This document shows, one piece after another, positions 40,767 through 63,657 of a stretch of 64,000 bases of DNA. This DNA is from a virus (Duplodnaviria > Caudoviricetes), in IMG/VR virus record IMGVR_UViG_644736323_000003, positions 1,012 through 65,011 of that record. One strand, given 5' to 3'. Every line of letters starts with the position of its first letter. Position 1 is the first letter of the stretch. The notes beneath the pieces are model-generated. The model was not told the origin of the DNA. It saw nothing but the letters and a program-made list of their open reading frames with translations, and searched no databases. The position numbers were made by a program, and so were the translations under genes.

Positions 40767-42191
40767 GTGGACCTCGCCGACGAGGATTGGCTCAAGAGGC
40801 TCATCGCCGCGCACGATGACGAACTGCCCGAGCTGCAGACCCTGAACTCGCACTACGAGGGCACCCAGCCGCTGAACTACCTGCACCCCGAACTACTCAA
40901 CGAGCTGGACGGCCGCCTCCAACAGGTAGTGATCAACTGGCCGCAGTTGGTCGTGGACTGCCTGGATGAACGCCTGGACCTCGTGGGGTTCAGGCTCTCC
41001 GGGTCGGCCGAGGCCGACGCTGGTCTGGAAGAGATCTGGCAGCACAACGACCTGGACTCCCTGTCCCAGCAGGCGCACGTCGACGCGCTGGTGATGCGGC
41101 GCGCCTACTCCGTGATCGGGTCGTCGTCCGAGGAGGGGAACGACCTGCCGCTGGTGACGATGGAGTCGCCGCTGGAGGTGTACGCCGAACGGGACCCGCG
41201 CACGCGCGAGATCGCCGCCGCCGTGAAGCGGTGGGAAGAGGAACTGCCGACCGGGAAGGTCCAGCACGCCACCCTCTACCTGCCGGACAAGACGAAGTGG
41301 TACGTGCGCAAGAACGGCAAGTGGGAGCTGGACAGCGACTACGACGCCGACGAGCACGAGCTCGGTGTGGTGCCGGTGGTGCCGCTGGTGAACCGCCCGC
41401 GGCTGCAGTCCCCGAACGGCAAGAGCGAGCTGGCGGCGATCATCCCGGTGTCCGACGCCGCGAACAAGGTCGCGACCGACATGATGGTCTCCGCCGAGTT
41501 CCACGCCATGCCGAGGCGCTGGGCGTTGGGGTTCGGGCCGGAGGACTTCACGGATGAGAACGGCCGCCGAGTCTCCATGTGGTCGAAGATCGCAGGCCGG
41601 ATCTGGGCAACGCGGAAGACCAAGCAGGACGGCGCCGAGGTCGGCCAGTTCCCCGAGGCGTCGCTGGAGAACTTCCACAAGACCATCCACCTCCTAGCCA
41701 GCATCGTCGGCTCCCTCGGCGCACTCACCCCACAGACGATGGGGCAGCAGAACGCGGCGAACCCCGCCACCGCCGACGCCATCCGGGCAGCGGAGACCAG
41801 GCTGATCAAGCGCGCCGAGCGGCGAATGCTCTCGTTCGGGGACAGCCACGAGCGCACAATGCGGATCGCCGACCGCATCCGCACCGGAGTCTGGCGGCCT
41901 GAGCTGAAACGGCTGGAAGCGCGCTGGAGGGACGCGGCAACGCCCACCATCGCCCAGGCGGCCGACGCGACCGTGAAGCTGCACGAGTCCGGCATCCTGC
42001 CGCTGCCCTTCGCCCGCGAGCGGCTGAACTACCTGCCCGAGGAGATCAGGCTGATGGAGCAGGCGGACGAGAAGGCCGCCCGCACGGAACAGGACAGGGT
42101 GTTCGGCCCGCTCAAGCCCCCGCCGCCGCCCCCTCAGCCTCCTCGCGAGCAGCCGACTGACCCGCAGGTCGCAGCCGAGCAGGCGGCATGA
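40767..42191 (+). CDS. Portal protein (SPP1 gp6-like)
   Basis: HYEGTQPL, VINWPQLVVD, VVPVVPLVNRP, SADAIRAAE-type segment, WRDAATPT. Confidence 0.92.
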   Translation: MDLADEDWLKRLIAAHDDELPELQTLNSHYEGTQPLNYLHPELLNELDGRLQQVVINWPQLVVDCLDERLDLVGFRLSGSAEADAGLEEIWQHNDLDSLSQQAHVDALVMRRAYSVIGSSSEEGNDLPLVTMESPLEVYAERDPRTREIAAAVKRWEEELPTGKVQHATLYLPDKTKWYVRKNGKWELDSDYDADEHELGVVPVVPLVNRPRLQSPNGKSELAAIIPVSDAANKVATDMMVSAEFHAMPRRWALGFGPEDFTDENGRRVSMWSKIAGRIWATRKTKQDGAEVGQFPEASLENFHKTIHLLASIVGSLGALTPQTMGQQNAANPATADAIRAAETRLIKRAERRMLSFGDSHERTMRIADRIRTGVWRPELKRLEARWRDAATPTIAQAADATVKLHESGILPLPFARERLNYLPEEIRLMEQADEKAARTEQDRVFGPLKPPPPPPQPPREQPTDPQVAAEQAA

Positions 42192-43231
42192 CCAGCGCGG
42201 GCACCGCCTTCTACGACGAGTCGGCCGTGCTGGAGCGCCAGGCGATCGCGATGATCCTGGCGCTGTGGGGCCGCGTCGACGCCGCGAACCCGTCCGCGTC
42301 GTGGGTGGGGCTGCTACCCGAGGCGGTGGCGATCCTGGTGGCGGCGCAGACCGTCGCCGCCGAGATGGCCGACCCCTACCTGCTCGACACGCTCGGCGGC
42401 AGCATCGACACCCCGGTCGACCCCGGCGGGATGGTGTCGACCGGGCTGGACGCTCTGCTCTACCTGCCTGCGGCGAACGCCCAGCAGGCACTGTGGACCG
42501 GGATGCCCGCTGCCGCCGCGCTGGGGCGCGCGCGGGCGACGCTGGCGTCGTACGTGCGCACCGCGTCCGGCGACACCGGGCGCCTCGCCTCGGCGGCCGG
42601 GATCGCCGGACGCTCGGACGTCGCGGGCTACTACCGGCGGCTCCGGCTGCCCTCGTGCTCGCGGTGCATCGTGCTGGCTGGGCGGTTCTACCGCTGGTCC
42701 AGCGGGTTCAGGCGGCACAAGAACTGCGACTGCAAGCACGACCCGGTCCAACGACGCGACGACGCGGAGCCACTCGATGTACGCGGAGCCATCGCCTCCG
42801 GCCAGGTGCACGGCCTGTCCAAGGCTGCGACGGCCGCGATCGTGGAGCACGGCGCCGACCCCGCACAGGTGATCAACGCCCAGCGCGGCATGTACATGAT
42901 CGGCGACCTGCAGGCCAGCGCGGTCGGCATCACCCGCCGCGCGGTCGCCGGGGCCCGCATCCTCGCCCGCGACGTCGACCGCGCCCTCGGCCTCGACGTC
43001 CGCAACCGGACTTACACGAACATGACCTTCGACCGCGCCGCCGCGGCCCGTTACGCGGAGCTGTTCCGGCGCGGCAAGACCTACGTGCGCACGACCGCCG
43101 ACGGGCGCCAGCAGGGCTACGCCTACCGGTACGTGCGCACCCCGCGGCCCACACCGCAGCAGATCGTGACCTCGGCGAGTAGCCGCGCCGAGGCCGTGCG
43201 CCAGCTCACCAACTACGGCTACATCCTCTGA
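42188..43231 (+). CDS. Minor capsid / head maturation protein
   Basis: CSRCIVLAGR...FRRHKNCDC; follows the portal gene. Confidence 0.75.
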   Translation: MTSAGTAFYDESAVLERQAIAMILALWGRVDAANPSASWVGLLPEAVAILVAAQTVAAEMADPYLLDTLGGSIDTPVDPGGMVSTGLDALLYLPAANAQQALWTGMPAAAALGRARATLASYVRTASGDTGRLASAAGIAGRSDVAGYYRRLRLPSCSRCIVLAGRFYRWSSGFRRHKNCDCKHDPVQRRDDAEPLDVRGAIASGQVHGLSKAATAAIVEHGADPAQVINAQRGMYMIGDLQASAVGITRRAVAGARILARDVDRALGLDVRNRTYTNMTFDRAAAARYAELFRRGKTYVRTTADGRQQGYAYRYVRTPRPTPQQIVTSASSRAEAVRQLTNYGYIL

Positions 43232-43277: not shown

Positions 43278-43943
43278 ATGATCCAGCCCGGCTGGAAGTT
43301 CGACCTCGCGCGCCACGACGACGACCCGGCCGCCCCGGCCGAGGACCCGAACGGCAGCACGGAGGACCCGGCTGACCCGCAGGAGCCCTCCACCGAACCC
43401 GACAAGGGCCAGGAAGGCGAGCAGGGGAAGACCGAGAAGAAGGACGGCTCCGCTGACGCCGCCAAGTGGAAGGCCTTGGCGCGCAAGCACGAGGCGGCGG
43501 CCAAGACCAACGCGGCAGCAGCCAAGCGGCTCGCGGAGATCGAGGAAGAGCAGAAGACCGCCGAGCAGAAGCTTGCCGAGCGTGCCGAGGCCGCCGAGCA
43601 GCGCGCCGTGGCGGCCGTCCAGCGCGCCGTGCGCGCCGAGGTCAAGGCGCTCGCCGCCGCCGACTTCGCCGACCCGAGCGACGCTGTCGACGCCCTCAAG
43701 GCCGAGGACTACGTCACCGACGACGGGGACGTCGACACCGGGGCCATCAAGATGCGGCTCAGCGAGCTGCTGGACGCCAAGCCGCACTGGCGCAAGGCCG
43801 AGTCGAAGGGCCCGGCCAAGCCCAAGCCCGACCCGTCACAGGGCGCCCGTGGCGGTGGCACGAAGCCCGCCAACTTCAAGGACGCCTCCCCCGAGGAGGT
43901 CCGGGCGGAGCTGGCCCGACTCGGAGTCAAGACGCGCTCGTGA
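43278..43943 (+). CDS. Capsid scaffolding protein
   Basis: Acidic N-terminus, KWKALARKHE coiled coil, PKPDPSQG; leader WKFDLARHD. Confidence 0.85.
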   Translation: MIQPGWKFDLARHDDDPAAPAEDPNGSTEDPADPQEPSTEPDKGQEGEQGKTEKKDGSADAAKWKALARKHEAAAKTNAAAAKRLAEIEEEQKTAEQKLAERAEAAEQRAVAAVQRAVRAEVKALAAADFADPSDAVDALKAEDYVTDDGDVDTGAIKMRLSELLDAKPHWRKAESKGPAKPKPDPSQGARGGGTKPANFKDASPEEVRAELARLGVKTRS

Positions 43944-44131
43944 TCCACATCGCTGCTCGCCTCGGCGACGGCTCCACCTCCATCGAGGTGACCGGACACG
44001 AGGGCCACGTCCTGGAAGGGCGGGTCTGCGCGGCGGTTTCCGCGATCACCCAGACCGCCGTGCTCGGTCTCCAGCAGATCGCCCTTCAGCACCCGGACAT
44101 CGTGTCCATCGAGATCACTGAGGAGAGTTGA
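43940..44131 (+). CDS. prp: Prp-family (DUF464) cysteine protease
   Basis: IEVTGH(20)E...VC(30)AAVSAITQTAVLGL; sits between scaffold and capsid genes. Confidence 0.8.
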   Translation: MIHIAARLGDGSTSIEVTGHEGHVLEGRVCAAVSAITQTAVLGLQQIALQHPDIVSIEITEES

Positions 44132-45486
44132 TGTTCACCTCGACCGTTGCCCGGTCCTGCGCGGGCGTCCCGGCCAGGCCGGTCAACCCGCTGCTCACGC
44201 AGTGGTTCCGGCTCGGCCGCCACGACGTGTGGTCGACCCTGCCCGCCGCCATCCGCTCCCTCATGCAGAACGGGCTGCTCGAGCGGGCCTTCGAGGACGC
44301 CCTGCTGCCCGAGTTCCAGTTCGCCGCCATCGCGGACAACGAGCCGTGGGCGGCGAACCTGGGCGACACCAGCACCCGCACCCGCACCGGCCTGCTCGCC
44401 CCCAAGACCACGCCGGTCACCGGATCCGACCCCTCGGCCTCGACCTACGCCGTCGAGCAGTGGTCGGTGACGATGGACCAGTACGGCGACAGCATCGATA
44501 CGAACATGATGCAGTCGGCCATGACCATCGCCAGCAAGTACCTGCGGGACGTGCAGACCCTCGCGATCGGCGCCGGTCAGTCCCTGAACCAGATCGCCCG
44601 CAACAAGCTCTACCGGGCCTACTCCGGCGGCCGGACCTGGGCGACAGCCGGCGGTTCCTCGGACACCAGCATCACCGTGGCCAGTGTGGACGGCTTCACC
44701 CACGTCGGCGTCAACGGCGTGCCGACGCCGGTGTCCGCCTCCACCCCGCTCACCGTCAGCATCGAGGGCGTCGCGAACACCGTCACCGGCGTGTCCGCGC
44801 AGACCGGCCCCGGCACCCTCACCCTCGGCACCGCGCGCGCCGACACCACCGGTGACTCCGTGGTCGCGGCCAACGCCCCGGTGTCCTACCGCCCGGCCGC
44901 CAAGTCCAGCGCCAACGCCCTGACCTCCTCGGACACGGCCACCCTGGCGCTGTTCCGCAACGCCGTGGTGCGGCTGCGCAAGCAGAACGTGCCCACGGTC
45001 GGCGGCTTCTACGTGGCGCACATCCCGCCGGACACCGAAGGTCAGCTGTTCGCGGACCCGGACTTCAAGCAGGCCGCGCAGGGAGCGGTGGAGTCCCCGA
45101 TCTACCGCAACCTCAGCCTCGGCCGCTTCGCGGGCATCGACTGGGTCCGCAACAACGAGACCCCCACCGTGACCTCGGCGACCGGAGTCACGGTGCAGCG
45201 CCCGCTCGTCGTCGGCGAAGGCGCGCTCACCGCGAACCCCTTCGAGGGCAACGGGAACCTGCTGGACGGCACCGGCGTGGAGAACAACCCGAACATCCGC
45301 ATCATCGGGCCCGCGACCGGCGTGCAGGTCGCCCTGATCACCCGCCCCCCGCAGGACAGGTTCCAGCAGAACCTCTCCACCACGTGGAGCTGGGTGGGTG
45401 ACTTCGGCGTGCCGTCCGACGCGACGGCGGCCAGCGGCGACCCCGCTCGCTACAAGCGGGCCGTGATGATCGAGCACGCCTCCTGA
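44131..45486 (+). CDS. Major capsid protein
   Basis: AGGAG RBS; 451 aa after scaffold; leader ending WFRLGRHD. Confidence 0.85.
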   Translation: MFTSTVARSCAGVPARPVNPLLTQWFRLGRHDVWSTLPAAIRSLMQNGLLERAFEDALLPEFQFAAIADNEPWAANLGDTSTRTRTGLLAPKTTPVTGSDPSASTYAVEQWSVTMDQYGDSIDTNMMQSAMTIASKYLRDVQTLAIGAGQSLNQIARNKLYRAYSGGRTWATAGGSSDTSITVASVDGFTHVGVNGVPTPVSASTPLTVSIEGVANTVTGVSAQTGPGTLTLGTARADTTGDSVVAANAPVSYRPAAKSSANALTSSDTATLALFRNAVVRLRKQNVPTVGGFYVAHIPPDTEGQLFADPDFKQAAQGAVESPIYRNLSLGRFAGIDWVRNNETPTVTSATGVTVQRPLVVGEGALTANPFEGNGNLLDGTGVENNPNIRIIGPATGVQVALITRPPQDRFQQNLSTTWSWVGDFGVPSDATAASGDPARYKRAVMIEHAS

Positions 45487-45950
45487 TGGCCACCGTGCGG
45501 GCCGTCGCGGACAAGAGCTGCATGGTCGTCATCCAGGGCGGGCAGACGCTGGACATCGTGGTGGGGCAGGAGTTCACCGGCGACGTGGCCGCCTACCTGC
45601 TCCGGACCGGAGCTCCGGTCCGGAGCGTGCTGGGGGAAGGCGACATCGAGCCCGTTGCCCCCGCGCACCCGAGCGGCAGGGCTTCCGAGCGCCAGGGCGA
45701 CCAGGGCGACCAGGGCGACCAGGGCGACCAGGGCGACGGTGCCACGCCGGAACAGCAGGTACCGCCGCCCCCGCCAGCGGCGCCCGAGCAGGACGGCGAG
45801 CCGGAGCCCGGCAGCAAGATCGACCTGATCATGCAGTGGGTCGGCACCGACCCCGAACGGGCCCAGCGGGCGCTCGACGCCGAACAGGCCCGCGGGTCCC
45901 AGCAGCGGGCCCGGCTGGTCGAGAAGCTCACCGGCATCATCGGCGGCTGA
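45486..45950 (+). CDS. Head-associated protein with (QGD)5 repeat
   Basis: CCAGGGCGA x5 at 45692-45736; WVGTDPERAQRALDAE...R..L. Confidence 0.65.
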   Translation: MATVRAVADKSCMVVIQGGQTLDIVVGQEFTGDVAAYLLRTGAPVRSVLGEGDIEPVAPAHPSGRASERQGDQGDQGDQGDQGDGATPEQQVPPPPPAAPEQDGEPEPGSKIDLIMQWVGTDPERAQRALDAEQARGSQQRARLVEKLTGIIGG

Positions 45951-63580: not shown

Positions 63581-63657
63581 TGGTGCCCCCGGTGCGACTC
63601 GAACGCACACTGGACGGATTTTGAGTCCGCTGCCTCTGCCGATTGGGCTACGGGGGC
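63581..63657 (-). tRNA. tRNA-Leu(CAA), integration target (att junction in its 3' part)
   Basis: GCCCCCG/CGGGGGC acceptor stem, anticodon loop CTCAAAA, GTTCGAGTC T-loop, CCA end facing the prophage. Confidence 0.95.

Follow-up and report, generated by a model that had tools for sequence, protein, structure and literature searches.

The element analyzed here lies in a 64,000-nt stretch of viral DNA (the window: positions 1,012 to 65,011 of IMG/VR virus record IMGVR_UViG_644736323_000003), which corresponds to positions 6,596,490-6,660,489 of its host's single 8.25-Mb contig and carries a prophage of this Streptomyces-type genome. Head and tail genes of the siphovirus type form a module at 39-54 kb of the window (Table 1). 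Within it, the scaffold and major capsid genes flank an open reading frame (ORF) of 63 amino acids (aa) that belongs to the family of the cysteine protease Prp and that we term mini-Prp. Both flanking genes encode, close to the N-termini of their products, a common tag: F-D-L-A-R-H-D in the scaffold (43299-43319) and F-R-L-G-R-H-D in the capsid protein (44206-44226). These elements had been singled out in an initial annotation made from the sequence of the window, and the coordinates given there for both tags, as well as the residues highlighted in the ORF, proved to be exact. The three genes are tightly packed, with GTGA (43940-43943) shared by scaffold and mini-Prp and TGATG (44129-44133) by mini-Prp and capsid. 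The sequence GAGGAG is located 5 nt upstream of the capsid ATG, and no alternative start codon was found between 44131 and the capsid tag. The capsid protein is 55% identical to gp7 of Streptomyces phage Kromp, and its gene is followed by connector and tail genes, including one for a tape measure protein of 1371 aa.

Table 1. Genes of the head module and predicted leader segments, in window coordinates.
Feature	Coordinates	Strand	Basis and remarks
Large terminase, 537 aa	39143..40756	+	Same position as Kromp gp2 terminase large subunit; Pfam TerL_ATPase match weak
Portal	40767..42191	+	PF05133 SPP1_portal, E 2.8e-42, 145.6 bits
VG15-like protein (candidate MuF-like minor head protein)	42188..43231	+	phrog_1522 'head maturation protease', E 3.9e-46
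Head scaffolding protein, 221 aa	43278..43943	+	phrog_4708 head scaffolding protein, E 3.1e-22; Kromp gp5 homologue
Predicted scaffold leader, Met1-His13, ending W-K-F-D-L-A-R-H	43278..43316	+	Predicted cut before Asp14 (43317-43319)
Mini-Prp, putative cysteine protease, 63 aa, GTG start	43940..44131	+	PF04327, 29.2 bits; phrog_4478 peptidase
Major capsid protein, 451 aa, N4-gp56 family	44131..45486	+	TIGR04387, 63.1 bits (cut-off 60); phrog_1357 major head protein, E 1.7e-26
Predicted capsid leader, Met1-His31, ending W-F-R-L-G-R-H (44203-44223)	44131..44223	+	Predicted cut before Asp32 (44224-44226)

The assignment of mini-Prp to the Prp family with a His/Cys dyad was borne out. The protein matches the Pfam profile PF04327 (Peptidase_Prp) above its cut-off of 27 bits, covering profile positions 10-58 of 90. 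Its His20 (43997-43999) and Cys30 (44027-44029) lie within the motifs G-H ... V-C-A-A-V-S-A and form the only two invariant columns in an alignment of 34 mini and full-length Prps; both are also invariant in a second alignment of 45 sequences. The helper Ser, four residues after the Cys, is present in mini-Prp (Ser34) and, like His20 and Cys30, is kept in the 316 short homologues described below and in full-length Prps. The roles of the Prp His, Cys and Ser are taken from the literature (PMC9261936).

A word-indexed search returned 316 homologues of mini-Prp. The best 120 of these 316 are all 55-65 aa long, and their named sources are Streptomyces, Nonomuraea, Kitasatospora, Kribbella, Streptosporangium and other actinomycetes. 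Twenty aligned homologues present a mean column identity of 82%. An exhaustive HMMER search of representatives at 50% identity yielded 94 clusters, which are a mix of short forms (49-81 aa, with a single matched stretch) and ordinary Prps of approximately 100-125 aa. Mini-Prp does not belong to the ribosomal-processing Prp equivalogs of NCBIfam (PRK14553): its best score, 23.1 bits with NF011133, falls far short of the cut-off of 171, the other models scored lower, and the cut-offs of these models range from 122 to 225 bits. Proteins P0026, P0031, P0035 and others from actinomycete genomes are 62-aa prophage proteins that bear the NCBI name 'ribosomal-processing cysteine protease Prp', with 23 bits.

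Profile comparison places mini-Prp on one half of the Prp fold. Aligned with hhalign against a profile of 20 full-length Prps, residues 1-55 of mini-Prp correspond to columns 1-58 of 115 (99.6%, E 9e-24). The single-chain AlphaFold2 model (predicted local distance difference test score of 91.5) consists of a beta hairpin (3-18, with strands 3-9 and 12-18), a softer loop (19-26), a helix (27-50) and a short tail. The only soft stretch of this model is the loop from His to Cys, the counterpart of a mobile loop that, in Prp of Staphylococcus aureus (SaPrp; PMC9261936), closes over the substrate. When the model was searched against 48,161 PDB chains, ranks 1-4 were all Prp structures (2idl, 1s12, 2g0i and 4peo), with Z-scores of 4.5-4.8 and root-mean-square deviations of 1.9-2.5 Å over 51-57 residues, and either half of the Prp structure was covered by these matches. 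A phmmer search against PDB sequences returned SMU.848 only, with an E-value of 0.18. By the definition of the full Prp fold given in PMC9405229, mini-Prp presents only the beta-beta-helix half and a short tail.

Mini-Prp is thus the catalytic N-terminal half of Prp, conserved at half length, which upholds the earlier statement that this protease is much shorter than the host enzymes. A decayed Prp gene was rejected, given that the half length is conserved among the homologues, at 61-65 aa in more than 300 of them. How the short form arose is less clear-cut: a MAFFT alignment and weak second HMMER stretches fit either an internal deletion or a C-terminal truncation, and hhalign favors a plain N-terminal half, a call that is weakened by the resemblance of the two halves of Prp to each other.

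The tag is overrepresented in the window. The pattern F-x-L-x-R-H was observed three times across the six frames of the 64 kb, whereas 40 first-order Markov simulations gave 0.175 occurrences on average, and two of these three observed occurrences are the N-termini of the genes flanking mini-Prp. The third (minus strand, ~5801) was attributed to chance; it falls within an Arg/Gly-rich ORF unlike a gene.

We then compared 70 loci, including 47 from actinomycete reference genomes, 21 close IMG/VR loci and Kromp, which is the sole isolated phage with a mini-Prp gene among 50,697 phage records (tblastn) and in which this gene is annotated just as 'protease'. The block W-F-x-L-x-R-[H/F] was found near the N-terminus of 69 of the 70 capsid proteins and 67 of the 70 scaffolds, and the three missing scaffolds are cut off by the ends of their loci. 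These counts support the observation of the initial annotation that both proteins carry the tag. The residue that follows the tag His is D, A, N or G. The block shared by scaffold and capsid protein corresponds exactly to positions P7-P1′ of the predicted cleavage site, and the two proteins are otherwise unrelated. Upstream of the tag, conservation is poor; downstream, capsid proteins continue with D-V-R-S-T-L-P-A and scaffolds with D-D-P-E-P. Leader lengths vary from approximately 13 to 31 residues, the window providing both values (scaffold and capsid, respectively), and the window scaffold presents a slight variant of the tag with a Lys inserted between Trp and Phe.

Some loci depart from the common form of the tag. 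In a Nonomuraea/Microbispora subgroup, the scaffold presents R-F|D and the capsid protein of the same locus R-H|D. We found no enzyme residues that track His versus Phe at P1; one type of Prp serves both within a locus. Three Catenulispora-type loci (L040, L070 and L071) carry Arg instead of Trp at P7 (R-F-x-L-x-R-H|D) in scaffold and capsid alike, so that the two substrates of one phage have drifted together. Finally, the capsid protein of a Streptomyces sp. T028 prophage (L009:3190-3330) presents tandem leaders, W-F-R-L-D-R-H|D followed 27 residues on by W-F-D-L-G-R-H|D. These look like a duplicated tag, and two successive cuts may be possible.

Enzyme and tag co-occur. Using a hidden Markov model built from the Prp alignment, we detected a Prp ORF directly upstream of the capsid gene in 21 of the 21 close IMG/VR relatives with upstream DNA, and in none of 57 distant relatives whose capsid proteins lack a leader. 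We also conducted the reverse scan, searching all of IMG/VR for DNA encoding W-F-x-L-x-R-H-D in high-GC codons. This yielded 79 stretches, of which 66 have a Prp on the same strand at -400 to +1000 nt. Six of the remaining stretches are scaffold-type and too near the end of their locus to tell, and seven are in unrelated contexts, approximately the number expected by chance. The initial annotation had named an equal frequency of the motif in phages lacking the protease as the result that would speak against it; the frequencies were found to differ in both directions (0/57 leaderless relatives; 66/79 stretches beside a Prp).

The arrangement of a Prp with two leaders recurs in an independent lineage, contig L135 (GC content of 0.47). 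In addition to portal and true Phage_Mu_F genes, L135 carries a gene for a Prp of 63 aa (57.8 bits) and one for a scaffold; its capsid protein belongs to a different family and is HK97-type (PF05065). The leaders of scaffold and capsid protein both end in Q-R-F, with Ser or Asn as the next residue. Across IMG/VR, 45 of 84 Prp-bearing loci present at least two head proteins with an L27-like leader. Together with L135 and the actinophage loci, these numbers indicate that a phage-encoded Prp with its own tags is a widespread arrangement, of which the window holds the actinophage form. In a group of IMG/VR loci with a GC content of 0.43 (L162-L190, e.g., L169:523), M-N-L-Q-L-F-A also opens a 655-aa protein whose gene lies upstream of that for a full-length Prp, which brings the tagged proteins of the head module to three in one phage.

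The initial annotation had doubted that the host uses Prp, and the genome agrees. The prophage gene is the sole match to PF04327 in the 8.25-Mb host genome. The host bL27 starts with M-A-H-K-K-G and has no extension, like the short L27 of Escherichia coli (compare Table 2 of PMC9405229). With no other PF04327 match and an unextended bL27, this host has nothing on which a ribosomal Prp could act. The context of a ribosomal Prp, namely a gene between rplU and rpmA and a cleavable L27 extension, is absent: rpmA directly follows rplU, and the mini-Prp gene is located in the head module of the prophage.

A precedent for such a system is established in S. aureus, whose host Prp cleaves the scaffold gp46 and the capsid protein gp47 of phage 80alpha (PMC5744158); the structure of Prp and its substrate contacts are also known (PMC9261936, PMC9405229). 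At real Prp sites P1 is aromatic and P1′ is necessarily small, and the classical register is that of L27 (K-L-N-L-Q-F-F|A) and of the 80alpha leaders (PMC9405229, PMC9261936). Three features of the actinophage sequences point to the His|Asp bond as the predicted cut, as the initial annotation had also suspected. First, conservation ends at His, or at the Phe that replaces it in some scaffolds, and the variable residue that comes next is small, which agrees with real Prp sites. Second, with His at P1, the Leu at P4 and the hydrophobic residue at P6 fall in the classical register. Third, homologues of both proteins that lack a leader begin at that point. Leaderless capsid homologues (~35% identity) were found in the 57 IMG/VR contigs and in Ralstonia and Komagataeibacter phages, all devoid of Prp. 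They start with M-[G/P]-I-Q-N-F-P-A-A-L, and Met1 aligns with the predicted P1′ Asp (Asp32 in the window). Likewise, scaffolds of Prp-less phages begin with an acidic, proline-rich segment without a leader, and M-A-D-P-D-P of the Ralstonia phage Raharianne scaffold aligns with the predicted mature start D-D-D-P. None of 44 scaffold-position ORFs examined in Prp-less phages presented the tag.

In this register, the hydrophobic P6, Leu at P4, aromatic P1 and small P1′ are retained from classical Prp substrates, and Arg at P2 and Trp at P7 are new. The initial annotation had claimed a different specificity; the site is a variation on the classical Prp site and not a wholly different one.

Mini-Prp shares with the host Prp of S. 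aureus (YsxB; PF04327; MEROPS C108) the family and the His/Cys dyad. In contrast to that enzyme, it is phage-encoded, measures 63 instead of ~106 aa and has a shorter loop between His and Cys. The resemblance to 80alpha extends to the substrates: in both systems, short N-terminal leaders of scaffold and capsid protein end in a common tag, with similar residue classes at P6, P4, P1 and P1′ (PMC5744158, PMC9405229, PMC9261936). Leaders with the same site on both proteins are found in the window and in ~70 related loci. However, the actinophage tag differs from the 80alpha and L27 sites by its Trp at P7, Arg at P2 and His at P1 and by the lack of Gln at P3. In 80alpha the protease is the essential Prp of the host, whereas the actinophage host has neither its own Prp nor an extended L27, and the sole Prp-family gene is that of the prophage.

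Further counterparts are the phages with full-length Prps found on low-GC contigs, which also have a private protease gene in the head module and matching leaders (L-Q-L-F|A) on scaffold and capsid. Their Prps are mostly 85-124 aa, are encoded upstream of the scaffold gene and are associated with the L27-like site Q-[LRM]-F|[ASN]; a separate Prp of the host is usually present as well. In a minority of these low-GC loci (L133-L142), the Prps are mini forms of 63-70 aa with the site Q-R-F|[SN].

The prohead protease of pneumococcal phage Cp-1 is stated in PMC9405229 to be the other member of MEROPS clan CR; according to the same source, it is a phage cysteine protease, is grouped structurally with Prp and trims the major head protein by an N-terminal extension of ~40 residues. 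The statements on Cp-1 in that source do not mention a common tag on the scaffold, unlike in the mini-Prp system. No sequence likeness between mini-Prp and the Cp-1 protease was detected in the tblastn search of the 50,697 phage records, which returned Kromp only and did not involve a direct comparison. The HK97-type prohead proteases (herpesvirus-assemblin fold; MEROPS S78/U35) also trim capsid and scaffold in or around the procapsid, but they are unrelated serine proteases of at least ~200 aa that are packaged in the procapsid and that remove long delta domains or digest scaffolds, not a short tag. No gene for a protease of this type was found in the head module of the window by Pfam and PHROG scans. 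We found no paper on phage-encoded mini-Prps, on the full-length Prp genes of low-GC phages, on the W-F-x-L-x-R-H tag or on an actinophage Prp in a literature search that misses most subscription journals.

The comparative evidence supports the reading of the initial annotation, a self-contained head-maturation system, and we consider it likely that mini-Prp is the phage's own head-maturation protease and that it trims the leaders of the scaffold and capsid protein after His. Mini-Prp would recognize W-F-x-L-x-R-H at the end of the 13-residue scaffold leader and the 31-residue capsid leader and would cut the His|Asp bond, producing a capsid protein that starts with D-V-W-S-T-L (D-I-R-T-T-L would be the equivalent in Kromp) and a scaffold that starts with D-D-D-P. 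By analogy with SaPrp, Phe at P6 and Leu at P4 would occupy a hydrophobic groove, the aromatic P1 residue (His or Phe) would stack on His20, Cys30 would be the nucleophile and P1′ would be small. Because only the catalytic half of the Prp fold is present, mini-Prp is probably a homo-oligomer, in which two beta-beta-alpha(-beta) chains may rebuild the contribution of one full-length protomer.

Several points weigh against this interpretation. The C-terminal half of the Prp fold is missing from mini-Prp and, given that P4 and P6 are bound at the dimer interface in SaPrp (PMC9405229), its activity would depend on an oligomer. In absolute terms, the Z-scores of the structural matches are low, which is expected for a chain of 63 residues, and searches of the PDB with Foldseek gave no significant match (best E-value of 2.3; TM1457 at rank 7, TMq of 0.47). 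Neither His at P1 nor Arg at P2 has a precedent among characterized Prp substrates. The contrast between 21 and 57 relatives opposes two capsid clades and is therefore close to one evolutionary event rather than 78 independent trials. Cleavage itself is something that we infer from comparison and, by analogy with 80alpha (PMC5744158), the main importance of the tag may be that of an assembly signal, with its role as a cut site coming second.

This last point can be taken further. The tag could be chiefly a signal for assembly or recognition (co-folding, pairing of scaffold and capsid protein, or binding to mini-Prp, for example), its removal being absent or unimportant and mini-Prp acting as a leader-binding chaperone and not as an essential protease. 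In 80alpha, cleavage is dispensable and the scaffold leader is essential for assembly: phages with uncleavable scaffold and capsid protein are still viable, and pre-cleaved scaffold yields no capsids (PMC5744158). That mini-Prp holds half of the Prp fold only would also suit a binding protein. Yet His20 and Cys30 are invariant in mini and full-length forms, which would be needless for mere binding, the leaderless homologues begin exactly at the predicted cut, and only small residues occupy P1′, which is also the case at genuine Prp sites (PMC9405229). We therefore regard this alternative as improbable; if correct, it would alter the role of cleavage and not its existence.

It is less probable still, and in our view very unlikely, that the leaders are removed by another protease, either the VG15-like protein or a host enzyme, and that mini-Prp has another substrate. 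The VG15-like gene is called a maturation protease in phrog_1522 and in the annotation of Kromp. The Ralstonia and Komagataeibacter phages without Prp also lack this gene between their portal and capsid genes, and because both genes are absent from Prp-less phages, co-occurrence alone does not separate the two candidates. However, the VG15-like protein presents no recognizable protease family or motif and no solved relative: its match to PF25310 (VG15) reaches 22.2 bits, below the cut-off of 26, and neither NCBIfam nor PDB sequences yielded a match. In L135, the corresponding position is that of a genuine Phage_Mu_F protein, and the two have a Cys/His patch in common; the patch reads C-x2-C ... 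H-x-N-C-x-C in the VG15-like protein, and H-x-N-C is shared with the Phage_Mu_F protein of L135 (pairwise E-value of 0.004). We consider it to be a probable MuF-like minor head protein, and its label of 'capsid maturation protease' may be an annotation error that spread. Moreover, the layout of a Prp and two leaders is repeated in L135, where the MuF protein is a plain one, and the tag keeps the register of classical Prp sites, both of which argue against this alternative. Separately, the motif E-L-P-R-H-D recurs ~2.3 kb upstream of Prp in L009, L013, L015, L021 and L045, in one frame of the portal/VG15-like region; since a stop codon lies just before one copy, the motif probably reflects conserved DNA read out of frame.

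Cleavage by mini-Prp at another bond, for example after Arg (P2) or after Asp, is the least likely alternative: the alignment to leaderless homologues fixes the cut to approximately one residue only, owing to Met removal, but strict conservation ends at His/Phe with D/A/N/G as the next residue, and Leu at P4 and the hydrophobic P6 match F|A of L27 only with His as P1 (PMC9261936, PMC9405229).

Two further features of the window were recorded. A 154-aa ORF directly downstream of the capsid gene (45486-45950) lacks a Pfam match; its product contains repeated G-D-Q units and, after them, a stretch rich in proline. Its location matches that of the hypothetical protein gp8 in Kromp, and the product may decorate the head. 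The window's sole tRNA gene, tRNA-Leu(CAA), is located at 63581-63657 on the minus strand, ~10 kb beyond the tape measure gene, and may be the attachment site of the prophage.

Two points of annotation follow from these results. Actinomycete genes are named 'ribosomal-processing cysteine protease Prp' although the L27 of their hosts, at least in the present host, has nothing to process, and the neighboring VG15/MuF-like gene is labeled 'capsid maturation protease' without visible support. If mini-Prp acts as we propose, Prp-dependent head maturation, known so far only for 80alpha with the host enzyme, would extend to phages that bring their own protease; such phages would live in hosts without any Prp pathway, and half of the Prp fold would suffice. 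Tag removal could be a practical use of such a protease, given its 63 residues and seven-residue site. We see roughly even chances for the more demanding combination in which a protein of 62-63 residues is a fully active cysteine protease, is an obligate homo-oligomer and relies on a private seven-residue tag that the actinomycete host does not recognize. If true, mini-Prp would be among the smallest known cysteine proteases, would form with its tag a natural, minimal and orthogonal tag-and-protease pair, and would represent an extant half-domain form, either ancestral to the pseudo-symmetric Prp fold or derived from it.

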